Positions 1,022 to 16,193 of a DNA stretch of 64,000 nucleotides are shown here, one piece after another. Numbering within the stretch: the stretch's first letter is position 1; each line of letters opens with the position of its first letter. A program made the translations under genes and the position numbers. This DNA comes from Candidatus Helarchaeota archaeon. Its GTDB lineage: Archaea; Asgardarchaeota; Lokiarchaeia; Helarchaeales; RDOG01. The DNA is taken from assembly GCA_019058315.1 (NCBI GenBank), contig JAHPZH010000002.1, positions 1,165,910-1,229,909 of the forward strand, read 5' to 3'. The notes under the pieces are model-generated. The model had not been told where the DNA came from, did not search any database, and saw nothing but the letters and a program-made list of their open reading frames with translations.

Positions 1022-2758
1022 ATGAGTGAAATTGTTATGACTGAAAAGGATGAAGTAAAGGAAAAATTGGTAGACCCCGAGTCTATAAAGGAATTGGAAA
1101 AAGAAAAACGGAAAAAATCCAGAAAAAAAAGAAGAGAAGAAGAACAAAAAATAATGTTTCCTACAAAGATGACCAGATATATTTGGTTTGTTATCATTTT
1201 CGCTTCACTTGTCAATGGTTTTGATAGTTGGTGTTCAGTTGCACTCAACTTGGCTATGGGATCATTAGTTGAAAATTATGATATTTTAGGGAAATTAACA
1301 AACCCGAATCTATTTGTATACTTTGGTCTCGCAGGCAGTCCTGTTACGATGGGGGTTATACTTAGCATTGCGGGGACTGGAGTCATTGCTGCAACTTCAT
1401 TTAAATACTTGACTGATAAATATGGTCGAAGACCATTAACCCTTTTGACCGCTATTCTCTTTACAGCTTTTACTGTTTTAACAGCATTTGCACCAGCAAC
1501 TTCCGAAGGTTTGTTAATATTTCTTACTTTTAGAGTTTGCTCAAATTTCTTTCTTGCTGCTGATGTTGTAATAATAATCGTAGCCGAAGAAAGTCCCAAT
1601 CATTTACGAGGACGGTTAATTGGAATAGTGTTTGCATTAAGTGCACTTGGAGGAACGGCTTGTGGGCTGGTTCAATCAGCAGGAGTTAGAATTCCGATCC
1701 CTGGTCCTTGGGGATTTGGTGGATCTTGGTCAAGTCACATGACTGTTTGGCAAAGTATGTTCTTTCTATCCATAATTGGCTATTTATTTATTATTCCTCT
1801 GTTTTTCTTTCTTAAGGAGACCGGACCATTTAAAGTCATGAAAAAATATGAGGATTGGAGAAAGAAGAAGGGGTTAAAACCTAAAACTGGTTGGTTTACT
1901 CCTCTACAAAGAAAATATGCACGTGGTCTAACTGTTGGTTGTGTTATTGTATTTCTAGCTCAATTGATGTATTTTTCTCAAGGAACATTTTTTGCACTTT
2001 ATTATGCAAAAGAACTTAATGTAAGTACTGGACGTTTGGGAATTTTATCATTCCCGGTGTTAGTATCGGGAGGGCTTGGGCTTTTTATAGCTGGTTCAGT
2101 TATTGATAGATGGGGAAGATTACCGACTCTACACCGGGCTGGTATGGGAGCTATGATCACAGGCGCTTCATATGCTTGGCCGTCTATATTCATTGCTGGC
2201 GATATACCAAATTCTCTTATTACAGGTATTGTAGTATTAAGTTTATCATTATTTATTTTTTTTGTTACATTAATGCTTGTATGTGGTGCTTTGGCTGGGA
2301 TCGAAATGGTGCCAACCCATATTCGCTCGACTACCCAAGGATGGATAGGAGCTATTTCTCGAGCAGCTGTGATGGCGGTCCCAATAATGGTAATGTTCGG
2401 AGCGGAAGCTGTAGGTGGATTAGGGCTTTCATATCAATTTATTTTTGCATTAAATGTAATGCCTTTAACAACAATTATGTTTACAGTTTACGTTTTGGCT
2501 GTTGAAGGAAAAGGACGTCAAATCGATGAAATAGTAGCTACAGAAATTTACTCTAAAATGAAGAGGGTGAGCGATTATAATAAACCTTATTACTACTATT
2601 TTCTTACTATGACTGCACAATTTACTTGCCTAACGATATACGGTCTCACAACAAATGGAACTCTTTTAGGCATAATTATAATGGTCAGTATATATTTTAG
2701 TATATCAATTATATGTTTTATAATAATTATAATTGTCCGAGGATGGTTCACAGAATAG
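1022..2758 (+). CDS. MFS transporter, paralog 1 (12 TM core plus ~2 extra C-terminal TMs)
   Basis: Motif A twice (LTDKYGRR, VIDRWGRL), AEESP..LRG, P.HIRST. The true start may be ATG 1037. Confidence 0.9.
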   Translation: MSEIVMTEKDEVKEKLVDPESIKELEKEKRKKSRKKRREEEQKIMFPTKMTRYIWFVIIFASLVNGFDSWCSVALNLAMGSLVENYDILGKLTNPNLFVYFGLAGSPVTMGVILSIAGTGVIAATSFKYLTDKYGRRPLTLLTAILFTAFTVLTAFAPATSEGLLIFLTFRVCSNFFLAADVVIIIVAEESPNHLRGRLIGIVFALSALGGTACGLVQSAGVRIPIPGPWGFGGSWSSHMTVWQSMFFLSIIGYLFIIPLFFFLKETGPFKVMKKYEDWRKKKGLKPKTGWFTPLQRKYARGLTVGCVIVFLAQLMYFSQGTFFALYYAKELNVSTGRLGILSFPVLVSGGLGLFIAGSVIDRWGRLPTLHRAGMGAMITGASYAWPSIFIAGDIPNSLITGIVVLSLSLFIFFVTLMLVCGALAGIEMVPTHIRSTTQGWIGAISRAAVMAVPIMVMFGAEAVGGLGLSYQFIFALNVMPLTTIMFTVYVLAVEGKGRQIDEIVATEIYSKMKRVSDYNKPYYYYFLTMTAQFTCLTIYGLTTNGTLLGIIIMVSIYFSISIICFIIIIIVRGWFTE

Positions 2759-2830
2759 AAACTATATTCAAATACCTCTCTGACAAATTTAAGAGAAATT
2801 GAGTAATTAACAGTCCAAGAGGGATATTAT

Positions 2831-2962
2831 TTACCTCCCTAACCACTCCTGAAATGAAAATAGAGGATCTCCTTTAAAAAATTCTAGATATATTAATGTA
2901 ATAATGATAAAAAATATACATAAACCAATGGCTACAACAGTATAGATTTGATAATTTTCCAT
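2831..2962 (-). CDS. Unannotated 43-aa single-TM membrane microprotein, copy 1 (MENYQIYTVVAIGLCIFFIIITLIYLEFFKGDPLFSFQEWLGR)
   Basis: Hand translation. ATG start with AAGGT upstream. 24/43 aa identical to the same-length copy at 4910-5041. Confidence 0.8.
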   Translation of the reverse strand: MENYQIYTVVAIGLCIFFIIITLIYLEFFKGDPLFSFQEWLGR

Positions 2963-3099
2963 CTTGTTTACCTTTTGAATCCTATAATTTAAATATATAT
3001 TTGAATATGTAGTTGTTTACCAAATTATTAAATTCTTATAATTTAAATTTTGAATTTGGAAATAATAACAAAAACCCCATTATATTTGACAAGGAGATT

Positions 3100-4836
3100 A
3101 TGCGAGAGATTTGTATGACTGAGAAGGACGAAGTAAAGGAAATAATTGCAGATCCAGAGTCTGTAAAAAAATTAGAAAAAGAAGAACGCAAAAAATCCAG
3201 AAAAAAAAGACGAGAAGAAGAAGAAAAAATAATGTTTCCTACAAAGATGACCAGATATATTTGGTTTGTCATAATCTTCGCTTCAATTGTCAATGGATTC
3301 GACAGTTGGTGTACAGTAGCAATCACTTTAGCTATGGGATCACTGGTAGAAACATATGATATTTTGGGGAGTTTAACAAATCCTAATCTTTTTGTATATT
3401 TTGGTCTCGCAGGCAGTCCTGTTACGATGGGGGTTATACTTAGCATTGCGGGGACTGGAGTCATTGCTGCAACTTCATTTAAATATCTGGTTGATAAATA
3501 TGGTAGAAGACCATTAACTCTTTGGACTTGTATTCTATTTACAGCTTTTTCTGTTTTAACTGCGTTCGCACCAGCTACATCTACTGGATTGGTAATATTT
3601 TTAATATTTAGAGTTTGCTCAAATTACTTTCTTGCTGCTGATGTTGTAATAATAATCGTAGCCGAAGAAAGCCCAAACCACTTACGAGGACGATTAATTG
3701 GAATAGTTTTTGCATTAAGCGCATTTGGTGGAACAGCTTGTGGAATGGTCCAATCAGCAGGAGTTCGAATTCCGATTGCTGGACCTTGGGGATTTAATGG
3801 AGCTTGGTCAAGTCACATGACTGTTTGGCAAAGCATGTTCTTCCTATCCATAATTGGCTACTTATTTATTATTCCACTATTTTTATTTCTTAAGGAGACT
3901 GGACCATTTAAAGTAATGAAAAAATATGAGGATTGGAGAAAGAAGAAGGGGTTAAAGCCTAAAACTGGTTGGTTTACTCCTTTACAAAGAAAATATGCAC
4001 GGGGTATGGCAGCTGGTTGCGTTGTAGGGTTTTTAGCTCAATTAATGGCATATGCTCAAGGTACATTTTTTGCAATTTATTTTGCAAAAGAATTGAATTT
4101 AACTCCTGATGTGTTAGGAGTTTTAGCATTCCCTGTATTAATGGCTGGAGGAGTTGGACTTTTTATAGCTGGTCCAGTTATTGATAAATGGGGTAGACTA
4201 CCTACTATTCATAGATTCGGTGTTGGAGGTTTAATTGCATATGCATCATTCGTATGGCCTTCTGTTTTTATTGTTGGTGACTTACCCAATGCCCTTATTA
4301 CTGGTATAGTCACATTCAGCACCGCTTTGGGTGCCTTTTGTGTTACTATAATGGTTGTTTGTGGTGCACTTATTGGTATTGAATATTTTCCAACTCATAT
4401 CCGAAGTACTGCAGGGGGATGGATCGGTGCAATCTCAAGAGGAGCCGTTATGGCTGCCCCAATAATGGTGATGTTCGGGGCTGAAAGCATAGGTGGGTTA
4501 GGGTTATCATATCAGTATATATTCGCACTTATGGGAATGCCGTTGACGACTGTTATGTTTACCGCTTATGTATTGGGTGCTGAAGGGAAAGGTCGGGGAC
4601 TTGATGAGATAGTAGCTGCAGAAATCTATACTAAAATGAAGAAAGATAGGGAGTATAAGAGACCATATTATTACTATTTTATTTCTATGATTGTACAATT
4701 CGTTTCCCTTACAATATACGGTCTTTGTACTAGCGGAAGCATTTTTGGCATAATTTCAATGGTTAGTTTATATTTTATTTTATCAGTAATATGTTTCCTT
4801 ATAATAATGAAGGTTCGAGGAATGGTCACAGAGTAA
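3100..4836 (+). CDS. MFS transporter, paralog 2
   Basis: Colinear with 1022-2758. Start reassigned from TTG 3013 to ATG 3100 (or 3115) by alignment: MREICMTEKDEV vs MSEIVMTEKDEV. Confidence 0.9.
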   Translation: MREICMTEKDEVKEIIADPESVKKLEKEERKKSRKKRREEEEKIMFPTKMTRYIWFVIIFASIVNGFDSWCTVAITLAMGSLVETYDILGSLTNPNLFVYFGLAGSPVTMGVILSIAGTGVIAATSFKYLVDKYGRRPLTLWTCILFTAFSVLTAFAPATSTGLVIFLIFRVCSNYFLAADVVIIIVAEESPNHLRGRLIGIVFALSAFGGTACGMVQSAGVRIPIAGPWGFNGAWSSHMTVWQSMFFLSIIGYLFIIPLFLFLKETGPFKVMKKYEDWRKKKGLKPKTGWFTPLQRKYARGMAAGCVVGFLAQLMAYAQGTFFAIYFAKELNLTPDVLGVLAFPVLMAGGVGLFIAGPVIDKWGRLPTIHRFGVGGLIAYASFVWPSVFIVGDLPNALITGIVTFSTALGAFCVTIMVVCGALIGIEYFPTHIRSTAGGWIGAISRGAVMAAPIMVMFGAESIGGLGLSYQYIFALMGMPLTTVMFTAYVLGAEGKGRGLDEIVAAEIYTKMKKDREYKRPYYYYFISMIVQFVSLTIYGLCTSGSIFGIISMVSLYFILSVICFLIIMKVRGMVTE

Positions 4837-4909
4837 GGATTTATATTTAAATATGGTTTTAATCAAATTAAGAATGATCTACTCTCTATTAAAAAATAAG
4901 GGAAATCTT

Positions 4910-5041
4910 TTATCTCCCTAACCAATCCTGAAGTGCAAATAGAGGATCACTTTTAAAAAATACAAGATAGGTTATTGTAACAATTACAAAAATTAAACTT
5001 ACACCAATAACTGCAATAGTATAAACTTTATAATCTTCCAA
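4910..5041 (-). CDS. Unannotated 43-aa single-TM membrane microprotein, copy 2 (MEDYKVYTIAVIGVSLIFVIVTITYLVFFKSDPLFALQDWLGR)
   Basis: Hand translation. TTG start (alternative GTG at 5050). Conserved FFKxDPLFxxQxWLGR* tail shared with copy 1. Confidence 0.78.
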   Translation of the reverse strand: MEDYKVYTIAVIGVSLIFVIVTITYLVFFKSDPLFALQDWLGR

Positions 5042-5212
5042 TTTATTCACAGCTTCTTTTTTTTTCCTTTATTTTTCATATTAATACTTAATAATTTTTA
5101 TCTTAATTTTCTGTTTTGAAAGAAAATATGATAAATCTTCTTATAAATTGAACTTTATTTTTATTGGATAAAAAAAAATAGATTTCATACATTTTAAAAA
5201 GAAATTTCAGCA

Positions 5213-7012
5213 CTATAAGCTGAAATATCGCCTTTTTTGAGAATCATCCATACCCTTAATCCAAAAAAATGCGTCTTCTTTATTATCTACTAAATTATTT
5301 TTTCCTTTTAAAATACTGTTCCATGGAAAAGATTTTGGATCAAACAGACCTATTCCTGAATCTGTCCACCATTCAATGCGTTGTTTTATCATTTCAAGAG
5401 AACGATGGTCCCAAACTTGAAAAGAAGTATAACATTGGAATGTATCCATTTTTCTCATAGCTTGAAAAATTTTTTGAGTGATAATATTTTTTCGTCTTTT
5501 AGAATCAAGAGAATAATATTGAAAAAGTAGAATTAAAATTTCAGTCGCTTCCTGAATACTTTTCAATGGTTCTAGTACTTCTTTTTGTTGTTTAATTATC
5601 CTTTTTAAAATTTTGTTGCATTCTTTTAATTTATCACCGTCTAAAGTTCTCCAAAAATCCTCAAGTAATAAAATTGCATTTTTAACATCTTCTTTTTCGT
5701 TCATAGAAGATGAAAGCAAACCCGCAACTTCGCTGCTGATTTCATTACCTCCAATTTCAGGATTCCAAAGATATCTTCCGAAAACATAATCATCGATAAA
5801 ACGGGTTTTAGGTAATACCCTATACCCAACCATACCTTTCAAATTTGGACCTAATGCTTTTATTGAATCTGTTATTCTTTCTTTTAACAAATGTATATGA
5901 GGTCTTGGAAATATCAATTGGTTTTCCATACCAGCTTCTGGATCGATTAAAAATACAAAATCATATACCTCGTAACCTTGCTCTATAGCCATTTTTAGTG
6001 TTTTTTGGGTTATATCTAAAATCTTAATATCCTTTGGAAATTTCGAAAATAATTGATCTCGGAGCCCCTCGATAGGTGGAATTTCAAAATCTTCTTTAAT
6101 ATTCGCAAACCAGGTCATAAAGAAGAGCCGTTTCGAGTTTCCATTTTCTTTAATAAATTTCAGATGTTCAACAAGTAGATCGGCAATATTATTCCTACAA
6201 TATTCGCAATTACAACCTCCACCTTCAAAAGAAATCGAAGCATGACTAGGAACTGTATTAAATCTTTTAATTGTGTATTTAAGGAGTTTATCACCAATCG
6301 CTTTTCCTTTTTGGGTACAATGAGTAACTCCCTGATAAAGAAAGATTTCTGCTCTAATCTCTGGGAATTTAATCCATAATTCGGTAGGGATTTCATCAAA
6401 AACATATAATGAAATGATTTCAAGACCTATATCTGCGGCATATTTAAATACTTTATCTAAAACGTCATATCTCCATGCATTTTTTTCCAATTCTTCGTAA
6501 TCAGGATGATATAACATTACTGCATGCATTATAAACATAATTGAGTTGTAATTAAATGACCGAAGCCTATTGAAATATTCTTTCCACTGTGAGAACGTCC
6601 AATTTTCAGTCGAAAGATCCCCTAATCCATAAGGCATATTTACCATCATACAACGTGTTTCAAAGAATGGAGTTTCAAATATATTCCAATCAATTGAAAA
6701 AGGATCTTGTGTTTGCTGTTCCTTTAGCTTCATATGTAGATAATATATTCCATTTGCAAGACCTTGGTCCCCTATAGATGAAATAAAAATATCTTCATTT
6801 TTGCTATAAATTAGAAAATCATCAATTTTTTTCAGTTTATTTGCATTCTCTAAATTTAATTTTCGAATTTCTTCTGAATTATTTTGCAAAGTTAGAAAAG
6901 TAATAGTTCTAGTTGAATTTGAATCTGATTCTCCAATCCAACTTGCTAAAACCTTAATAGCTTGTTCAATTTGTTTGGTTTTATTATTATTATAACTTAT
7001 TTTATAAGTCAT
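5213..7012 (-). CDS. Uncharacterised ~600-aa glycoside-hydrolase-like (GH20/GH67-type N-domain + TIM barrel) protein, paralog 1
   Basis: IGDQGLANGIYYL and TPFFETR resemble hexosaminidase domain-2/barrel junction. FEGGGCNCEYCR and DPEAGME motifs. No signal peptide. Confidence 0.5.
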   Translation of the reverse strand: MTYKISYNNNKTKQIEQAIKVLASWIGESDSNSTRTITFLTLQNNSEEIRKLNLENANKLKKIDDFLIYSKNEDIFISSIGDQGLANGIYYLHMKLKEQQTQDPFSIDWNIFETPFFETRCMMVNMPYGLGDLSTENWTFSQWKEYFNRLRSFNYNSIMFIMHAVMLYHPDYEELEKNAWRYDVLDKVFKYAADIGLEIISLYVFDEIPTELWIKFPEIRAEIFLYQGVTHCTQKGKAIGDKLLKYTIKRFNTVPSHASISFEGGGCNCEYCRNNIADLLVEHLKFIKENGNSKRLFFMTWFANIKEDFEIPPIEGLRDQLFSKFPKDIKILDITQKTLKMAIEQGYEVYDFVFLIDPEAGMENQLIFPRPHIHLLKERITDSIKALGPNLKGMVGYRVLPKTRFIDDYVFGRYLWNPEIGGNEISSEVAGLLSSSMNEKEDVKNAILLLEDFWRTLDGDKLKECNKILKRIIKQQKEVLEPLKSIQEATEILILLFQYYSLDSKRRKNIITQKIFQAMRKMDTFQCYTSFQVWDHRSLEMIKQRIEWWTDSGIGLFDPKSFPWNSILKGKNNLVDNKEDAFFWIKGMDDSQKRRYFSL

Positions 7013-7154
7013 TTCTTTTCAACATATTTCCATTTGTAGAGTGTATGCAATTTTTATATTTTAATTATTTAACTTTTTCGCAAATTTAAATTTACAAATG
7101 TTCTAGATTTATTGACATTTGAAAGTAAAGATTTTTAGTTTTACATAAAATATG

Positions 7155-8963
7155 TTATCCCCAAAATTGCGGAATTCTCATACCTTTAATCCAAGGTTGA
7201 ACATCTTTTTTCTCATCAATTAAATGATATTTTGCTTTTAAAAGACAGTTCCATGGAAATGATTTTGGATTAAAAAGTCCACTTCCAGGATCTGTCCACC
7301 AACGAACTCGCTGTTTTATCATCTCAAGTGACACAGCATTCCAAGCTTGATATGAGGTATAGCACTGGAATGTGTCCATCTCCCTCATAAGTTGAAATAT
7401 TTTTTGAATAAGCCCCTGTCTTCGTCTTTGGGAGTCAATCGAATAATATCGAAAGAGCAATTCTAAAATTATAATCGCTTCTTGGATGCTTTTCAATGGT
7501 TCTGATATATTTTTATTTTTTTTATTAACCATTTTTAAAATATTCTTACATTCCTTTAATTTTTCACCGTCAAAAGTTCTCCAAAAATCCTCAAGTAATA
7601 GAATTGCATTGGTTACGTTTTCTTTTTCCTTTATAGAAGAAGATAGCAAACCCGCAACTTCGCTAATGATGTTATTAACTTCAATTCCAGGATTCCAAAG
7701 ATATCTGCCTAAAAGATAATCATTAATAAAACGCGTTTTAGGTATTAATCTATAACCAACCATTCCTTTAAGATTTGAACCTAATGCTTTTATTGAATCT
7801 GAGATTCGTTCTTTTAACAAATTTATATGAGGTTTAGGAAAAAGGGATTGATTTTCCATACCTTCTTCAGGATCTATGAAAAATATAAAATCATATATCT
7901 CATAACCTTGATTTGCTGCCATTTTTAACGTTTTTCTGTTCACATCTATAATTTTTACTTCCTTTGGAACCTTAGAAAACAATTTTTCACGAAGTCCTTC
8001 AATTGGGGGTGATTCAAAATGCTCTTTTACATTGGCAAACCAGGTGCAAAAAAATAAATGCTTTGGTTGTGCATTTTTATTAATAAAATCCAAATAATTT
8101 ATAATAAGATCGACAATGTTGTTCCTACAATATTCACAATTGCATACTCCTCCCTCAAATGCAAACAGAGCATGACCATCCACATTTTTAAATCTATTGA
8201 GGGTGTAACTAAAAAGTTTTTCTCCAAACTTTCTTCCTTTTTCGCTACAATATGAAATACCTTGATAACCAAAGACTTTCGCTCTGATTTCTTGATGTTT
8301 AATCCATAAATCTGTTGGAATTTGATTAAAAACATATATTAAAATGATTTCTAGACCTATATCCCTTGCATAAGTAAAAACTTCTTCAAATATATCATAT
8401 TTCCAAGAATTTTTTCTCAATTCTTTAAAATTAGGATTATATAGCATCGCTCCTCCAATTGTAAACACAATCGAAGTATAGTTAAAAGATCGAAGTCTAT
8501 TTAGATACTCTATCCACTGTGAAAAAGTCCAAGTTTCAGTAGATAGCCCCCCCAAACCCAATGGAAAATGTAAGGTCACCCCTCGAGTTTCAAAATGTGG
8601 TGTTTGAAAAAGATCCCAATTAATGGAGAATGGGTCTTGTTTTTGACATTCTCTTAATTTCATGTACAAATAATATATAGCATTTGCAAGCCCTCGGTCC
8701 CCAATGGACAAAATAAAAATCTTATTTTCTTTATCTTGATTGTTTTTATTGTCACTAGAAATTAAAAAATCATCTACTTTTTTTAGATTATTCACTTTCT
8801 CTAAATTTAATTTTTGAATTTCTTTTGAATTATTTTGAAGTGTAAGAAAATTAAAAGTGTTTTTAGCATTTGAATCAGGTTTTCCAGCCCAACTTGTAAA
8901 AACCTTAATAGCTTGTTCGATTTGTTTGTTCCTATTTTTATTAAAATATATTTTGTAGGTCAA
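7155..8963 (-). CDS. GH-like ~600-aa protein, paralog 2
   Basis: Colinear with 5213-7012. FEGGVCNCEYCR, DPEEGME. TTG start. Confidence 0.5.
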   Translation of the reverse strand: MTYKIYFNKNRNKQIEQAIKVFTSWAGKPDSNAKNTFNFLTLQNNSKEIQKLNLEKVNNLKKVDDFLISSDNKNNQDKENKIFILSIGDRGLANAIYYLYMKLRECQKQDPFSINWDLFQTPHFETRGVTLHFPLGLGGLSTETWTFSQWIEYLNRLRSFNYTSIVFTIGGAMLYNPNFKELRKNSWKYDIFEEVFTYARDIGLEIILIYVFNQIPTDLWIKHQEIRAKVFGYQGISYCSEKGRKFGEKLFSYTLNRFKNVDGHALFAFEGGVCNCEYCRNNIVDLIINYLDFINKNAQPKHLFFCTWFANVKEHFESPPIEGLREKLFSKVPKEVKIIDVNRKTLKMAANQGYEIYDFIFFIDPEEGMENQSLFPKPHINLLKERISDSIKALGSNLKGMVGYRLIPKTRFINDYLLGRYLWNPGIEVNNIISEVAGLLSSSIKEKENVTNAILLLEDFWRTFDGEKLKECKNILKMVNKKNKNISEPLKSIQEAIIILELLFRYYSIDSQRRRQGLIQKIFQLMREMDTFQCYTSYQAWNAVSLEMIKQRVRWWTDPGSGLFNPKSFPWNCLLKAKYHLIDEKKDVQPWIKGMRIPQFWG

Positions 8964-9144
8964 TTAAAATTCACTATTGTTTATAAATTGGGGATATTCT
9001 CCTTATAAATCAGTTTTATATAACAGTTCTGCAATTCTAGAGCATATTTAATTACTAGTTTAAGGATATTTAAACGTCATACAATAAATATTTAAATAAA
9101 TGTTATCTAGTTTAGGTCATTAATTTTGGTTTAAAAAGATTTAT

Positions 9145-9927
9145 TTGGTGAAAAAAATGACAGTAACATTGGAATATTACTTTCAATTTTATTCAAACAA
9201 GCTATTTGGTCGTTCAATTTTTTCAGACCCAATGGAACTATTTTTATTTACAATTTCCTTTTTAAGCTTATTGTTTTTAATTGGTATAATATGGACATTA
9301 TATAACGGTTATAAAGAAACTAGAGTTATTGAAACTTTATTATTTTTATTAAGTATGATCTCTTTTTTAATTGCTGGTGTACTTGGAAGCATAGAGAGAA
9401 TAAGTTATTCGACTTGGGGTTTACCTCAACTCGGAGATCTCCTACATATAATCGTTTTATTTCCTATGCAATTTTCATTTCTATGTGTTAATACCTTTGC
9501 AATACGGATTACATTTCCCGAAAAATTCAATATGATTATTTCTTTCTTAATCGTACTATCCACTATTTTGATAACTATTATAACCTGGGCAATGATTCAG
9601 GGACCTCCTTATGCGATCATAATTAATTTTGCTGTGGTTCATTCCAATGAGGTCGGGATAGTAGTTTTAGCAACCCTTGCACCAGTTGCTGTAATGCCAC
9701 TAGCTATTTTCTTTTATTCGGCTAAGAAAATTCGAGATGAAGATAGACCAAAAAGTAATCGTTCTTTCTGGTTTGGAATGGGATTTTTATTTTTTACTTT
9801 AGGTGCAGGTTTAACAACACCTACTACCCCATATTTTGCTGTTTTCAGCATTTTTGCTGCATTTACTCTCTATGTTTGCTTTAGAATGCCAAACTGGTTC
9901 AAACGACACATAGGATGGATTGAATAA
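9145..9927 (+). CDS. 7-TM membrane protein of unknown function, paralog 1
   Basis: Seven hydrophobic segments, C-terminal MPNWFKRHIGW. Likely start ATG 9157 after GGTGA. Confidence 0.7.
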   Translation: MVKKMTVTLEYYFQFYSNKLFGRSIFSDPMELFLFTISFLSLLFLIGIIWTLYNGYKETRVIETLLFLLSMISFLIAGVLGSIERISYSTWGLPQLGDLLHIIVLFPMQFSFLCVNTFAIRITFPEKFNMIISFLIVLSTILITIITWAMIQGPPYAIIINFAVVHSNEVGIVVLATLAPVAVMPLAIFFYSAKKIRDEDRPKSNRSFWFGMGFLFFTLGAGLTTPTTPYFAVFSIFAAFTLYVCFRMPNWFKRHIGWIE

Positions 9928-10134
9928 CTCATTTATATGTGCTCATAAATCACCAATGAGTCCTTTATTAAAGAACAAAGAACAATAATTAATAATCAAA
10001 TACACTTGTAGAACAATTTATGCTTTAGAAAACAACCAAAAAAAAATTAAATCCAAAGATTTTAAAATTAAGGATTTAATAAAACTTCTTGCAGTTATTA
10101 AAATTCAACTGAAAATCTAAAAAGGATGCAATGA

Positions 10135-10914
10135 GTGAAAAAAATGGCAGTTTCATGGGATTATTATTTTCAATTTTATACAAATCAGATATTTGGACGT
10201 TTTTTTTATGTACAACCACTAGAAATTTTGGTAATAATATTTGCGTTTATAGGATTATTATTTTTAATTGGTATTATGCGGGCTTTATATAGGAATTATA
10301 AGAAATCTAATGCTATTGAAACTTTATTATTTTTAATAAGTATGATCGCTTTTTTAGTGGGTGGTGTCCTTGGAGGGATAGAGAGATTCTGTTATTCAAC
10401 TTGGGGTTTGCCACAACTAGGAGATTTAATACGAATAACTGTAATATTTCCTGTTTATTTTTCATTTATAAGTGTTAATATATTTGCTTTGAAAACTACG
10501 TTTCCAGAAAAATTTAAGATCATTCTTCCTTTTTTATTGATATTAACTATTGTTAGTGCAGGAACTGTAATTTGGGCAGAATTGCAAGGTCCTCCATACG
10601 CTAGAATTATTAATTTCGCTGTGGCCTACTCTCTTGAGATTAATTTAATACGTCTCATAACTCTTTCACCACTTGCTGTAATTCCAACAACTCTTTTTTT
10701 CTATTATGCAATAAAAAATCGAATTGAAGATAAACCAAAAAGTAATCTCTCATTCTGGCTGGGAATGGGATTTTTATTTTTCACTGTAGGTTCTGCTTTA
10801 ACATCAGCTGGAACTGAATTCTTTGGGCTTCTATTTATTTTGTCAGCAGCTATTTTCTATGTGTGCTTTAAAATGCCAGGATGGTTTAAAAAGTGTATAG
10901 GATGGCCTGAATAA
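10135..10914 (+). CDS. 7-TM membrane protein of unknown function, paralog 2
   Basis: Colinear paralog sharing YSTWGLPQLGDL, QGPPYA, FWxGMGFLFFT and MPxWFK. Confidence 0.7.
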   Translation: MKKMAVSWDYYFQFYTNQIFGRFFYVQPLEILVIIFAFIGLLFLIGIMRALYRNYKKSNAIETLLFLISMIAFLVGGVLGGIERFCYSTWGLPQLGDLIRITVIFPVYFSFISVNIFALKTTFPEKFKIILPFLLILTIVSAGTVIWAELQGPPYARIINFAVAYSLEINLIRLITLSPLAVIPTTLFFYYAIKNRIEDKPKSNLSFWLGMGFLFFTVGSALTSAGTEFFGLLFILSAAIFYVCFKMPGWFKKCIGWPE

Positions 10915-10929
10915 CACTCCCATATAACA

Positions 10930-12747
10930 TTAAATCTCCCATAATTCTGAAATTTTCGTTTCTTTTATCCAAGGCAATACATCTTTTTTATCATTAATCA
11001 AGTGATATTTTGCTTTTAGAAGGCAGTTTGCTGGAAAAGACCTTGGATTAAAATTACCACTTTCAGGATCTGTCCACCAATGAACTCGCTGTTTTATTAC
11101 CTCAATTGACACGGCATTCCAAGCTTTATATGATGTATAGCAATGAAATGTTTCAGTATTTCGCATAACTTGCATAATTTTTTGAATAATTGCTCTTTTT
11201 CGTCTTTTAGAGTCATGTGTATAATATCGAAAGAGCAATTCTAAAACTATAATCGCTTCTTGGATGCTTTTCAATGGTTCTGACATATTTTTTTGTTCTT
11301 TAATGACCATATTTAAAATTTTCTTACATTCTTTTAATTTATTACCGTCTAAATTTATCCAAAAATCCTCAAGTAATTGAATTACTTTTATTACGTTTTC
11401 TTTTTCGTTTATAGAAGAAGATAGCAAACCCGCAACTTCACTAATAAGTTCATCAACTTCAATTTTAGGATTCCAAAAATATCTACCCTCAACATAATCA
11501 TTAATAAAACGCGTTTTAGGTATTAATCTATAACCAAACATTCCTTTTAGAGAGAGAGAGGGTAATGTTTGAATTGAATCTAATATTCGTTCCTTTGACA
11601 AATTTATAAGAGGTCTTGGAAAAAGAGATAGATCTTCCATTCCTGCTTCGGGATCCATAAAAAATATAAAATCAAATATTTCATAGCCTTGATCTGCAGC
11701 CATCTGTAAGGTTTTTCTGCATACGTCTATGATCTTTACATCTTTAGGAATCTTAGAAAATAATTTATTCCGAAGCCCTTTAATTGGAGGTGATTCAAAG
11801 TGCTCTTTTACATTAGCAAACCAAGTTATAAAGAAAAGTCGTTCTGGCTCTGCATTTTTTTTAATAAAATTCAGGTAATCAACAATAAGATCAACAATAT
11901 TGTTCCTACAATAATCACAATTACAACCGCCCCCCTCAAAGGCAAAAAGAGCATTACTTGGGACTGTTTTAAATCTATTAAGTGTGTATTTAAGAAGTTT
12001 TTCCCCAATTTCTTTTCCTTTTTCACTGCAATGGGTGATTCCTTGATAACCAAATATATGTCCCCTTATTTCTGGAAATTTAATCCATAATTCAGTTGGT
12101 ATATGATTAAAAACATAGATTAAAATGATTTCCAGACCTATATCCTTTGCATAATTAAATACATCTTCAAACATATCATATTTCCAGGAATTTTTTTTCA
12201 ATTCCTCAAAATCAGGGTGATATAGTGCCCATGTACTTATTAGAAATATAATCGATGTGTAATTAAATGACCGAAGTCTATCCAAATATTCTTTCCAATG
12301 TGGAAAATCCCATGTCTCAGTGGAAAGTCCCTCTAAACCAAGTTTAAGATTAAGAAGAACCATACCACGTGTTTCAAAGTAGGGGGTTTGAAAAATATCC
12401 CATTTAATAGAAAACGGGTCTTTTATTTGCTGTTCTCTTAATTTCATGTATAAATAGTATATAGCATTTGCTAGACCTCGCTCTCCTATCGATAAAATAA
12501 AAATATCATTTTCTTTACGTTGATTTTCATTCTTTTCGCTAAAAATTAGAAAATCGTCTATTTTTTTAAGTTTATTCGCTGTCTCTAAGCTTAATTTTTG
12601 AATTTCTTTGGAATTTTTTTCCAATGTGAAAAGAACAAATTCATTTGTTGAATTTGAATCTGATTCTCCAATCCAATTTGTTAAAACTTTAATAGCTTGT
12701 TCAATTTGCTTGCTTTTATTCTTATTGAACCTTATTTTGTATTTCAT
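10930..12747 (-). CDS. GH-like ~600-aa protein, paralog 3
   Basis: Colinear with paralogs 1 and 2. FEGGGCNCDYCR, DPEAGME. Confidence 0.5.
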   Translation of the reverse strand: MKYKIRFNKNKSKQIEQAIKVLTNWIGESDSNSTNEFVLFTLEKNSKEIQKLSLETANKLKKIDDFLIFSEKNENQRKENDIFILSIGERGLANAIYYLYMKLREQQIKDPFSIKWDIFQTPYFETRGMVLLNLKLGLEGLSTETWDFPHWKEYLDRLRSFNYTSIIFLISTWALYHPDFEELKKNSWKYDMFEDVFNYAKDIGLEIILIYVFNHIPTELWIKFPEIRGHIFGYQGITHCSEKGKEIGEKLLKYTLNRFKTVPSNALFAFEGGGCNCDYCRNNIVDLIVDYLNFIKKNAEPERLFFITWFANVKEHFESPPIKGLRNKLFSKIPKDVKIIDVCRKTLQMAADQGYEIFDFIFFMDPEAGMEDLSLFPRPLINLSKERILDSIQTLPSLSLKGMFGYRLIPKTRFINDYVEGRYFWNPKIEVDELISEVAGLLSSSINEKENVIKVIQLLEDFWINLDGNKLKECKKILNMVIKEQKNMSEPLKSIQEAIIVLELLFRYYTHDSKRRKRAIIQKIMQVMRNTETFHCYTSYKAWNAVSIEVIKQRVHWWTDPESGNFNPRSFPANCLLKAKYHLINDKKDVLPWIKETKISELWEI

Positions 12748-12819
12748 TTTTTATTCACTAAGAAATAAACTAATTTTTTTGACCTTAGATAAAAATCCTA
12801 AAAAATAAAATTTATATTT

Positions 12820-14403
12820 TTGAATTTAATAATATTATCTAAAATCATTATGGGGAATATTTTGGTTAAAAGTAAGGCTCTAATAGTTTTAATAGTATTA
12901 ATAATCCTACCATCTATTTCCTATAATCTTGACGCTTGCATTAAATCTCCAGTAATCCCTTTTAATTTTTTAAATAATATTAAAACACAAAAGGATCCTC
13001 AACTCTTCACCAAACATGCTGAGATGATATCAAATTCGTCTGAAGATAATTATAGACCAAAGATAGCTATTGATTCATCTAATGAAATTCATTCCGTTTG
13101 GTATTCTCGTGACTATCCGATAAATGATTCTATAATTTATTCTAACAGCACCGATAACTTTACAAATAAAATGAAGATCACAGAAAGCTATCCCAAAGAT
13201 ACTGATCCATGTATTGCTATAGATAATTCGGATACGATTCATATAGCTTGGATTAGAGATTCTGAACCAGGTTGGTTGACTGATCCAACTGAAGTATATT
13301 ATACGAATAGTTCTGTTAATTTTTCAACACATAAGCTTGTAGTAAATCAAACTGAAGTTGATTCACCACAAATAGGTTGTGATTCTTTTAATAATGTACA
13401 TATAGCATGGCTGGGGTACAAAGACTTCCAATGGAATGTTTTTTATTCAAATAGTACGGATTATTTTTCATCAATAAAATATGTATCTCAGGATAGTTTA
13501 AGGGATTATTCGATAAGTCTGTGTGTTAAGGATGATGTTGTTCATATAATTTGGCGAAAATATATTGCTTATAAAAAATATAGAATTGCATATGCAAATA
13601 GTTCTAACGATTTTACAGAAACCATAATTTCAAAAAATGATGCGTATTATGAAAGTCCAAAAATCAAAGTTGATGATTCGGGTAATATCCATATTATTTA
13701 TGTAGAACGTTATGAAAAAAAGGAAGAAGACCCAATCGATAAAGAAGTTTTTATCTCCTTTTTTATTTCTTATATTTATCTAGATTATTTCAATGATCAA
13801 CCTTTTGGATTTTTTAATTTTGATGTTATAATCGTTTACCTTGCCATATTTGATTGGATTCATGGTTCTAATTATAATTATGAATATTTCTCTAGAATTT
13901 ATTATTCAAATAGTAGTGATAATTTTAACTCACGGAGTAGTCTCTCAAATTTAACATCAACTTGTGTTTGGTATCCCGATATTGCTATTGATCAATATAA
14001 TACTTGCCATTTAATATGGCAAGGAGCAAATTACTATTATTCAAATATATATCGTATATTCTATACAAATAGCTCTAAAAAATTTCAAGAATTCTATATC
14101 TATAAATCAGAATATGCAATTGATCATTCTGATTTTGAGATTGATGGTAAAAATGAAACTCATTTTATATATTCCGCATATAGAAACATTTGGTATTTTA
14201 ATAGCTCTGAATTAGAATACTATCCAGTTTCCATTGATACTGATATTATTATAGATTTAATTAATCTCTATTTTTCTATTCCAAAAATGCCAGATTTAAC
14301 AAATTTAACTATAATTTCGATTTATTGTTTAGCTGCTTTTAATGTTATTGCTCTTTATCTTCCAAAAAAAAGAAGGGATGCTCAAAGTATGGGGGAATCA
14401 TAA
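12820..14403 (+). CDS. Secreted/membrane-anchored repeat (beta-propeller-like) surface protein
   Basis: N-terminal signal-like helix. About 6-7 repeats of PxIAIDxxxxIHIxW...YSNSxDxF. C-terminal TM followed by KKRR. Confidence 0.65.
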   Translation: MNLIILSKIIMGNILVKSKALIVLIVLIILPSISYNLDACIKSPVIPFNFLNNIKTQKDPQLFTKHAEMISNSSEDNYRPKIAIDSSNEIHSVWYSRDYPINDSIIYSNSTDNFTNKMKITESYPKDTDPCIAIDNSDTIHIAWIRDSEPGWLTDPTEVYYTNSSVNFSTHKLVVNQTEVDSPQIGCDSFNNVHIAWLGYKDFQWNVFYSNSTDYFSSIKYVSQDSLRDYSISLCVKDDVVHIIWRKYIAYKKYRIAYANSSNDFTETIISKNDAYYESPKIKVDDSGNIHIIYVERYEKKEEDPIDKEVFISFFISYIYLDYFNDQPFGFFNFDVIIVYLAIFDWIHGSNYNYEYFSRIYYSNSSDNFNSRSSLSNLTSTCVWYPDIAIDQYNTCHLIWQGANYYYSNIYRIFYTNSSKKFQEFYIYKSEYAIDHSDFEIDGKNETHFIYSAYRNIWYFNSSELEYYPVSIDTDIIIDLINLYFSIPKMPDLTNLTIISIYCLAAFNVIALYLPKKRRDAQSMGES

Positions 14404-14970
14404 ATGTCAAGCAACAATATACGTGTTTTACGTTTTTTTTATGATTCAATTATTATTTTCTTTATTTTAATACTCATTCTTCCTCTTAGGGTTGCATATG
14501 AAATTTCGCTTTCTATATATAATTTGATTTTTGTAGCTCATAATTTACCATTTATTATTTCCCGAGGATCAATTCTATTTATTCTTGCTTTGATAATTTT
14601 CATAATTAGTATATTTTTATTCCGGAAGTTCTATAAAACAGAAGATGGGAAATTTGCTAAATATGGATATATTGCAAGTTTGATCTCATGTTTATTTGCC
14701 GGACAGTCAATATTAATTAATTATATCATTTATTTTTATCGAATGATTAATATCGCTTCTATTTATATAGGAATCGTTCTGGTTCTTACAGAATTAAATA
14801 TTAGTACATTGATATTTTTAAGACGTAATGATTTAGAAGACGTAAAACAAAGCAAAAAGATAAAAAAACATACAAAGATTGATTGGTATTGTCCTAAATG
14901 TGGAACCAAGAGAGAAATTGAATATAAATTTTGTATAAACTGTGGATTTTCATTTAATAAATTAGATTAA
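14404..14970 (+). CDS. Membrane protein with C-terminal zinc ribbon
   Basis: About 4 TM segments, then WYCPKCG...FCINCG. Confidence 0.7.
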   Translation: MSSNNIRVLRFFYDSIIIFFILILILPLRVAYEISLSIYNLIFVAHNLPFIISRGSILFILALIIFIISIFLFRKFYKTEDGKFAKYGYIASLISCLFAGQSILINYIIYFYRMINIASIYIGIVLVLTELNISTLIFLRRNDLEDVKQSKKIKKHTKIDWYCPKCGTKREIEYKFCINCGFSFNKLD

Positions 14971-15050
14971 AATCTCTAAATTCGATTCATTATTCTTTAG
15001 GATTAAAATAAGGTCTAAACATTTAAGAATAAAAGGTACAATCTACAATT

Positions 15051-16193
15051 ATGACAGAAAATATTGAGATCCATGGTTATTGTGATGAACGTTTCACTAA
15101 AGTACGAGAAGCATTTGCAAAAAATTTTAAGCGTGGTCGAGAGGTTGGAGCTTCATTTGCAGCCACACTAAATGGGAAGTTTGTAATCGATATTTGGGCG
15201 GGGTATGCAGATGCTGCAAAAACTCGCCCTTGGGAAAAAGATACAATCGTTAATGTTTATTCAACTACAAAAATCATGACTGCTATTTGCACACTTATGC
15301 TTGTGGATCGTGGACTGCTAGACCTAGATGCCCCAGTGGCTAAATATTGGCCCGAATTCGCGCAAAATGGAAAGGAAGATCTTCCTGTTCGTTATCTTCT
15401 AAGCCATACAGCTGGTTTGTCTGGGTGGGAAGAAGCTATTCCGGTGGAGGCACTCTATGATTGGGATCGAGTTGTTAAACTTCTTGCTGCTCAGAAACCG
15501 TGGTGGAAACCTGGAACTAAGAGTGGATATCATTCTGTTACTTTTGGTTACCTATTAGGAGAATTACTTAGACGTATTACTGGTAAAACTCTTGGTACTT
15601 TTTTCCGAGATGAAGTGGCTAAACCTCTTAATGCAGATTTTTATATTGGTTTACCCGAGGAACACGATTCTCGTGTTGGTGAATTAATTCCCCCAAAAAT
15701 GCCTGATCTCAGCAATCTTGGAATAGATGAGAGTTCGATAGCTGTAAGAACATTAATGAATCCCCCATTAACTGCAATGCATTCTAGAGATAGGGCTTGG
15801 CGAGCTGCTGAAATACCCGCCGCAAATGGACATGGTAACGCTAGGTCTGTTGCACGAATAACTGCTGCAATTGCTTGCGGAGGTAAACTTGATAATGTAC
15901 GATTACTTTCTATGAGTACAATCGAAAAAGCTCTAGAAGAGCAGAGCTATACTCCTGACTTAGTCCTTGTTCTTCCAACACGATTTGGCTTGGGTTTAGG
16001 TATTACACATAAAGAAAGACCAATAAGTCCTAATCCACGTACTCTATATTGGGGCGGATGGGGAGGAAGTTTGGGTGTGATGGACCTTGATGCTAAGTTG
16101 AGTTTTTCCTACGTAATGAATAATATGATGATGGGTCTTGGCGGAGATCCTCGTACAGCTAAGCTAGCTAAAGCTATATATAAATCACTATAA
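15051..16193 (+). CDS. Serine hydrolase, beta-lactamase/EstA esterase family
   Basis: SxxK (YSTTK), LLSHTAG, GYHS, WGGWGG. Confidence 0.9.
   Translation: MTENIEIHGYCDERFTKVREAFAKNFKRGREVGASFAATLNGKFVIDIWAGYADAAKTRPWEKDTIVNVYSTTKIMTAICTLMLVDRGLLDLDAPVAKYWPEFAQNGKEDLPVRYLLSHTAGLSGWEEAIPVEALYDWDRVVKLLAAQKPWWKPGTKSGYHSVTFGYLLGELLRRITGKTLGTFFRDEVAKPLNADFYIGLPEEHDSRVGELIPPKMPDLSNLGIDESSIAVRTLMNPPLTAMHSRDRAWRAAEIPAANGHGNARSVARITAAIACGGKLDNVRLLSMSTIEKALEEQSYTPDLVLVLPTRFGLGLGITHKERPISPNPRTLYWGGWGGSLGVMDLDAKLSFSYVMNNMMMGLGGDPRTAKLAKAIYKSL

Follow-up and report, generated by a model that had tools for sequence, protein, structure and literature searches.

The DNA described here is a stretch of 64,000 nucleotides (the window) from the Candidatus Helarchaeota archaeon assembly GCA_019058315.1 (contig JAHPZH010000002.1, positions 1,165,910 to 1,229,909). 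It holds two genes for transporters of the major facilitator superfamily (MFS) in tandem, MFS1 and MFS2, and each is followed by a small open reading frame (ORF) on the opposite strand. These two small ORFs, A and B, very likely encode single-pass membrane microproteins. We further suggest, more tentatively, that each of them is an ancillary subunit of the transporter encoded next to it. The features of the locus are as follows.

1022-2758, plus strand: MFS1, an MFS transporter of sugar-porter-like type; 578 aa if read from the ATG at 1022, against 573 aa from 1037 in the gene call of the assembly
2759-2830: spacer between MFS1 and A, 72 nt between the convergent stop codons
2831-2962, minus strand: microprotein A, 43 codons plus TAA, with an ATG start
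2963-3099: divergent intergenic region between A and MFS2, which carries the TATA-like block and the AAGGT of A
3100-4836, plus strand: MFS2, a paralogue of MFS1, 578 aa
4837-4909: spacer between MFS2 and B, 73 nt between the convergent stop codons
4910-5041 (to 5050 with a GTG start), minus strand: microprotein B, 43 codons from the TTG at 5041, or 46 from the in-frame GTG at 5050
4919-4899, minus strand: hairpin and T-run overlapping the stop codon of B, AGGGAGA...TCCCT followed by TATTTTTT, a terminator-like match by consensus only

The first-pass annotation of this DNA described two convergent 43-codon ORFs on the minus strand behind the MFS genes, 24/43 identical, with one transmembrane (TM) helix and a shared tail. 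Both ORFs are present, and B has 43 codons only if the TTG at 5041 is its start; in the alignment this TTG stands where A and two orthologues have ATG. A and B agree at 23/43 residues, or 24/43 if the TTG initiator is counted as methionine, and at 105/132 bases, and the tail FFKxDPLFxxQxWLGR is common to both. Since A retrieves B at E=1e-14 (tblastn, 5.8-Mb genome), this likeness is not a matter of chance. Each protein contains one strongly hydrophobic 19-mer (Kyte-Doolittle mean 2.7-2.9). In A, a short acidic N-terminus is followed by one TM helix (residues ~6-29), a G-D-P break and a short amphipathic helix (DPLFSFQEWLGR), and B has the same architecture. The AlphaFold2 model has a helix at residues 2-29, a break at the conserved G/S-D-P and a second helix at 35-42, with a mean predicted local distance difference test (pLDDT) score of 81. 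The break falls in the conserved hinge FFK-x-D-P, and the short amphipathic helix would probably lie at the membrane interface. An AT-rich, TATA-like block (TTTAAATTATA) is found ~20-38 nt upstream of the ATG of A, and a purine-rich AAGGT is found 9-13 nt upstream of it. Both are kept in the A orthologue, and we infer a putative promoter role for the AT-rich block from its sequence.

The two ORFs belong to a duplicated unit that also includes the MFS gene, as had been proposed at first pass. A single blastn high-scoring segment pair aligns 987-2961 with 3064-5040 at 79.6% identity, and it ends at the start codon of the microprotein. By segment, the two units are 81% identical in the MFS coding sequence, 53% in the spacer, 80% in the microprotein and 35% in the DNA upstream of the microprotein. 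Thus, the small ORF has been held as tightly as the transporter, while the flanks have decayed. The sister metagenome-assembled genome GCA_048940975.1 (L056) has a single unit, in the order enoyl-CoA hydratase, MFS, a called 43-aa gene (MFX1452462.1) and then a putative glycoside hydrolase (GH)-like gene. Its MFS is 87% identical to MFS2 and 75% identical to MFS1, so MFS2-B is the positional orthologue and MFS1-A is the extra copy. An A-type orthologue on the ENA contig L024 (1070-1201) is intact, has 84% residue identity and is convergent with an MFS1-like C-terminus.

There are five paralogues of the microprotein in the genome. Beside A and B in the window, three are found elsewhere:

C5:1241324-1241464: paralogue C, ~11 kb beyond the window
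C9:50062-50199: paralogue D
C3:552608-552772 (L023:1209-1373): paralogue E

Intact orthologues were found in sister assemblies and metagenome contigs by two large protein searches. An exhaustive HMMER pass over 1.84 billion representative proteins gave nine 50%-identity clusters only, all of 43-62 aa. Because the E-locus members of more distant contigs, which are 46 aa long, carry a C-type tail, we treat all of these proteins as one family and not two. The microproteins match no Pfam family at E<=0.01 and no NCBIfam family at E<=0.1. At E<=1, Pfam returns only sub-threshold matches to the TM parts of DAD, DUF2754, PDR_CDR, DUF5803 and Synaptobrevin, in 1-2 of 15 members. A single protein and a five-row profile, run against 40 and 160 other genomes of the class, gave only TM-noise matches with E above 8e-4 per genome, and the profile found nothing credible in the 160 same-class genomes, among them the sole other genome of the same family. 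The look-alikes in the ESM Atlas reach a best score of 0.80, within the range reached by shuffled sequences. In a full-text literature search we found no account of this microprotein family or of an MFS-bound prokaryotic microprotein. As judged from these searches, the family is previously undescribed, as first supposed, and is confined to one narrow Asgard clade. The earlier label of unannotated is true for A and B only, since their exact sequences are absent from a 15-billion-protein collection that does contain C, D and E from this assembly; moreover, the B orthologue is deposited as the hypothetical protein MFX1452462.1 (43 aa; L056:3047-3178). The possibility that A and B are fragments of a larger protein was ruled out, with no cluster longer than 62 aa among the 1.84 billion representatives. 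Closely syntenic assemblies, namely GCA_013375355.1 (L025/L029), GCA_048940975.1 (L027/L056) and GCA_048887025.1 (L028), bear between them three phylum names in the source records (Helarchaeota, Promethearchaeota and Hodarchaeota), all of them Asgard archaea.

The substitution pattern across this family makes it very probable that A and B are genuine protein-coding genes. The first-pass annotation argued for purifying selection from the two copies in the window. However, this pair is underpowered: by the Nei-Gojobori method (NG86) there are 6.5 silent and 19.5 replacement changes, and dN/dS is 0.79, which is indistinguishable from 1 (Fisher p=0.46). The case for real genes therefore draws its power from paralogues and orthologues, and there the claim of purifying selection is borne out. 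A codon model fitted to seven genes of the A-D types puts omega at 0.19, with a 2dlnL of 53 over omega=1; for 14 genes the estimate is 0.187, and the 2dlnL over omega=1, with the tree unchanged, is 89.4. D differs from its orthologue by 13 silent changes and 4 replacements (dN/dS 0.04, Fisher p=3e-8), dN/dS between E-type orthologues is 0.17-0.35, and A/B compared with C gives 0.10-0.25 (p 1e-3 to 1e-5). The A/B branch evolves faster (0.4-0.8) than the other branches. In 14/14 distinct genes, from at least six assemblies or contigs, the frame is open over 43-62 codons with an aligned start and no frameshift, despite saturated synonymous sites, and every orthologue that was fetched is free of internal stops. 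The differences between A and B fall on codon positions 1/2/3 as 15/4/8 (chi-square p=0.03), the pattern left by I/V/L/F exchange in NTN codons. When the 26 A-B substitutions were scattered at random in a simulation, the frame stayed open in 18% of cases and 1.3% of those reached the observed BLOSUM62 score (joint 0.24%), so the replacements between A and B are unusually conservative. In the E-type genes a GGAG is conserved 7-12 nt before the ATG, as is an AT-rich block still further upstream. Upstream of A-D there are TATA-like blocks and purine-rich motifs, the latter weaker than the GGAG. Coding on the plus strand was considered and rejected: the codon-aligned plus frame has stops, with TTA codons reading as TAA on the other strand, and no plus-strand ORF of at least 30 aa spans the region.

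Most locus types of the family lie beside one particular kind of transporter. A faces MFS1, B faces MFS2 and D faces MFS4, each pair convergent with 45-73 nt between the stop codons, and C is divergent from MFS3, 186 nt upstream of it. Thus three of the four locus types (A/B, C and D) adjoin paralogues of one expanded MFS subfamily, two in the convergent and one in the divergent arrangement. This subfamily, marked by a K/E-rich helix at the N-terminus and an additional TM hairpin at the C-terminus, has 15 paralogues in the genome, with loci on C2, C3, C5, C7 and C9, four of them in tandem at C2:203739-210996. Among 5.8 billion proteins it has 38 members, all of them confined to this narrow group of archaea. 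In the tree of the 15 paralogues, every MFS gene with a partner (four in all) belongs to one nine-member clade, of which the other five members are without a microprotein partner, and none belongs to the other, six-member clade. The linkage that the first-pass annotation expected in other genomes is indeed found there. The A/B-type linkage recurs in L024 and L056, and the D-type linkage recurs in L025 and L026. In L059 a 54-aa D-type homologue faces an MFS that is only 59% identical to MFS4, and in L058 a 62-aa C-type homologue is divergent from a K/E-rich N-terminus typical of this MFS family. Two further small ORFs lie next to MFS paralogues and do not match the family hidden Markov model (HMM). 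One is a 43-aa F/L-rich ORF at C5:1250770-1250901 (minus strand), convergent with the MFS paralogue at C5:1248950-1250647, and the other is a 68-aa two-helix ORF at C7:101136-101342 (minus strand), divergent from the MFS at C7:101718-103397. Both are probably ORFs that arise by chance in AT-rich DNA, or else small genes unrelated to the family.

A structure prediction for the complex of MFS1 (residues 44-578) with A gave an ipSAE of 0.59 (0.57, 0.59 and 0.59 in the individual runs), graded by the method as weak support, and none of the three controls scored above 0.00. Between the runs at least 93% of the contacts agree, and the pLDDT of the partner is at least 70. The benchmark mark was reached by 58/80 solved complexes and 2/110 mismatches, counts that hold only roughly here because each chain was supplied as an alignment of our own making. 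A and B are very probably translated as single-pass membrane microproteins of 43-46 aa, from a gene that was duplicated in tandem with its convergent MFS neighbour, and we suggest that each may be made from its own promoter and not as part of the transporter operon. The TM helix would pack against the side of the neighbouring MFS that faces the lipid, and the microprotein, as a private subunit of ancillary or regulatory kind, could affect the stability, activity or specificity of the transporter. Taken as a whole, with a narrow-clade family of real membrane microproteins whose members are predicted to bind the neighbouring MFS, this is the explanation that we favor, though we hold it with slightly more doubt than belief. 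In its best-supported form, it says that a second membrane protein is contacted by the TM helix and the interfacial tail of a single-pass protein, and in the A-D types the adjacent MFS is the obvious candidate for that partner. It could also be that convergent transcription couples the expression of an MFS and its microprotein negatively.

A number of observations weigh against a subunit of the MFS, and the pairwise dN/dS of A and B given above is one of them. In the benchmark, passing scores of 0.60 or less comprise 7/80 solved complexes and both of the passing mismatches, a band that the method itself rates as more often wrong than right, and the three controls are not stated to be hydrophobic helices. 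The first-pass annotation had the microprotein co-duplicated with each MFS, which is true of the two in the window. However, 11/15 MFS paralogues are without a microprotein or a relic of one, as judged by a protein HMM on all frames of 25-150 aa and by nhmmer on the DNA. None of the genomes examined has an MFS near the E locus; in all of them the neighbours of the microprotein are a divergent DUF7064 gene on one side and split PEP-utilizer/PPDK_N genes on the other. This E branch (on contigs including L027, L028, L029 and L057) is the most conserved of the family, and the E-type N-terminus and TM helix are nearly invariant across assemblies with ~50% silent-site difference. Furthermore, the microprotein is never co-oriented with its MFS, so the two are not co-transcribed, and the adjacency could persist merely because segmental duplications carry neighbours along. 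Alternatively, the microprotein could be real and independent of the MFS, with a role of its own or another membrane partner, and lie beside the MFS only through segmental co-duplication. The conserved neighbourhood of the E branch, the many MFS paralogues that do without a microprotein, the convergent or divergent layout outside the transporter operon, and an orientation to the MFS that differs between the C type and the A/B/D types all fit this alternative. Yet the adjacency has survived at three old paralogous loci where the MFS are only ~50% identical and the spacer DNA is randomised, it is also kept in more distant relatives, and two different arrangements both have an MFS as the neighbour. 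In addition, the complex prediction passed, if weakly, with its controls at zero. We regard independence from the MFS as a serious possibility, though a somewhat doubtful one. The accessory or regulatory role proposed at first pass is thus not established: the complex score is in its favor, and the orientation, the unpartnered MFS paralogues and the unlinked E branch are not.

Two other explanations are much less probable. The microprotein could be a type-I-toxin-like or membrane-active peptide that is held down by antisense transcription from the convergent MFS. In layout it is suited to this: it is a small, hydrophobic peptide with one TM helix, its genes are intergenic, present in several copies and for the most part overlooked by gene callers, and the 45-73 nt between the convergent stops would allow the transcripts to overlap. 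However, convergence with an MFS is not seen in the C and E types, there was no sign of a repeat or of an antisense RNA and no Rfam match, and the syntenic positions are stable across genomes, unlike those of patchy addiction modules. To our knowledge, there is no described archaeal type I system with this layout, and we consider such a peptide improbable. We consider it more improbable still that the ORFs are untranslated. In that case the MFS unit would contain a conserved element without coding function, for instance a terminator, an antisense RNA or a 3' regulatory element, in which one frame is open by chance. The dN/dS of A and B is compatible with such an element, the hairpin overlaps the stop codon of B, and the silent-site divergence pS of A and B (0.24) is below that of the adjacent MFS (0.44). 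Against this, the family-wide omega has strong likelihood-ratio support and the dN/dS of D and its orthologue is lower still, the substitutions have a period of three, and the frame is open in every homologue in a genome of 30% G+C, compared with 18% under random substitution of A. The hairpin has a weaker version at A and is not conserved in C, D or the orthologues. Rfam has no family at threshold over 2600-5300, and at E<=1 only a sub-threshold snoRNA-like match inside the 3' end of MFS1. A peptide of the SgrT type, which is encoded in the dual-function small RNA SgrS and inhibits a sugar transporter, was also considered and rejected: no Rfam family reached its threshold in 2600-5300, and the neighbour is an MFS and not a permease of the phosphotransferase system.

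The transporters themselves are sugar-porter-like MFS proteins. MFS1 matches Pfam MFS_1 (E=3.6e-19) and Sugar_tr (E=2.8e-15), and both MFS1 and MFS2 score above the gathering score for the two families (69-87 bits, cut-off 33.4). The closest solved relative, by sequence of the MFS profile, is the glucose transporter GlcP (4LDS, E=9e-11). In the AlphaFold2 model of MFS1 a core of 12 TM helices is preceded by a K/E-rich helix at the N-terminus and followed by an additional hairpin at the C-terminus (helices 516-542 and 548-577). MFS1 and MFS2 have 79% residue identity and a dN/dS of 0.20. Further along the window there are three paralogous proteins of ~600 aa that match neither Pfam nor NCBIfam, at 5213-7012, 7155-8963 and 10930-12747 (minus strand), and the gene at 5213-7012 is syntenic with the MFS-microprotein unit in GCA_048940975.1. 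In a close relative (L024:1-1619) the A-type microprotein is directly followed by the orthologue of the window gene at 15051-16193 (88% DNA identity). This junction implies that a block of 12 kb (~3003-15041) is absent from that organism or lies elsewhere in it. The block holds MFS2, B, three putative GH-like genes, two seven-transmembrane (7TM) genes and two more ORFs.

Small proteins that act on transporters are known from several systems. In eukaryotes, basigin and embigin are single-pass ancillary proteins of the SLC16 monocarboxylate transporters (MCTs); they are large Ig-domain glycoproteins and act mainly in trafficking. The two cases are alike in that a transporter of the MFS fold gains one TM helix from a separate protein with a single pass, an interaction that is only predicted in our case. 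Nothing suggests homology with A/B, and the parallel is a functional one only. In E. coli, AcrZ (49 aa) is a small TM protein bound to the resistance-nodulation-division (RND) pump AcrB (PMC12648545). It resembles A and B in having a single TM helix and fewer than 50 residues, and in a helix that packs on the lipid-facing side of a secondary transporter and tunes its activity or specificity (PMC12648545), which is only proposed for A/B. However, there is no sequence relationship (no Pfam family at E<=0.01, and sub-threshold TM noise at E<=1). The partner of AcrZ is an RND pump and the candidate partner here is an MFS, and A/B are archaeal, with a gene that adjoins the transporter gene and co-duplicates with it. 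An archaeal precedent for a small protein encoded next to its transporter is MttS (49 aa), which with MttQ is a small subunit of the MttP transporter of Methanosarcina mazei; MttS is encoded beside the transporter gene, forms a stable membrane complex and governs transport specificity (bioRxiv 10.64898/2025.12.02.691841). MttP belongs to the drug/metabolite exporter (DME) family and its small ORFs are in an operon, whereas here the transporter is an MFS and the microprotein genes are convergent or divergent, with a putative promoter of their own; the two systems are likened by description and not by sequence. KdpF (29 aa) and MgtS/MgtR (~30 aa) are bacterial small membrane proteins on K+ and Mg2+ transporters, and these tiny hydrophobic helices stabilise a transporter complex or control its turnover (PMC12648545). 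Their partners are P-type ATPases, however, KdpF is co-transcribed in kdpFABC, there is no sequence similarity, and no such genes are found near A/B. Ost4 is likewise a single-helix small protein, but no family member matched its Pfam model even at E<=1, and the neighbours of A-E are MFS or DUF7064/PEP-utilizer genes and not AglB/STT3.

Gene callers routinely overlook small membrane proteins, of which few have a named candidate partner. Here, the genome context names one that can be tested, i.e., a lineage-expanded MFS subfamily, in a locus of putative GH-like enzymes. The reach of the finding is limited to one narrow clade with no experimental system. Even if the interaction with the MFS is not real, the family is a clean example of how pairwise dN/dS is an unreliable test on a 43-codon TM peptide. 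It is a fair possibility, though one that we doubt slightly more than binding to the neighbouring MFS as such, that this is a lineage-specific system of private subunits. Several paralogous MFS would then each have their own single-helix microprotein, encoded tail to tail, that co-duplicates and co-diverges with the transporter and sets its stability or specificity. We know of no earlier prokaryotic case in which an MFS carrier has an ancillary single-TM partner, and such a system would be a functional parallel to eukaryotic pairs of an MFS and a single-pass protein such as MCT-basigin. The pairs A/MFS1, B/MFS2, C/MFS3 and D/MFS4 would then be a natural series for the study of how helices gain specificity. 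If the interaction is real, these archaea would have a transporter that has evolved with a dedicated one-helix subunit through repeated co-duplication.

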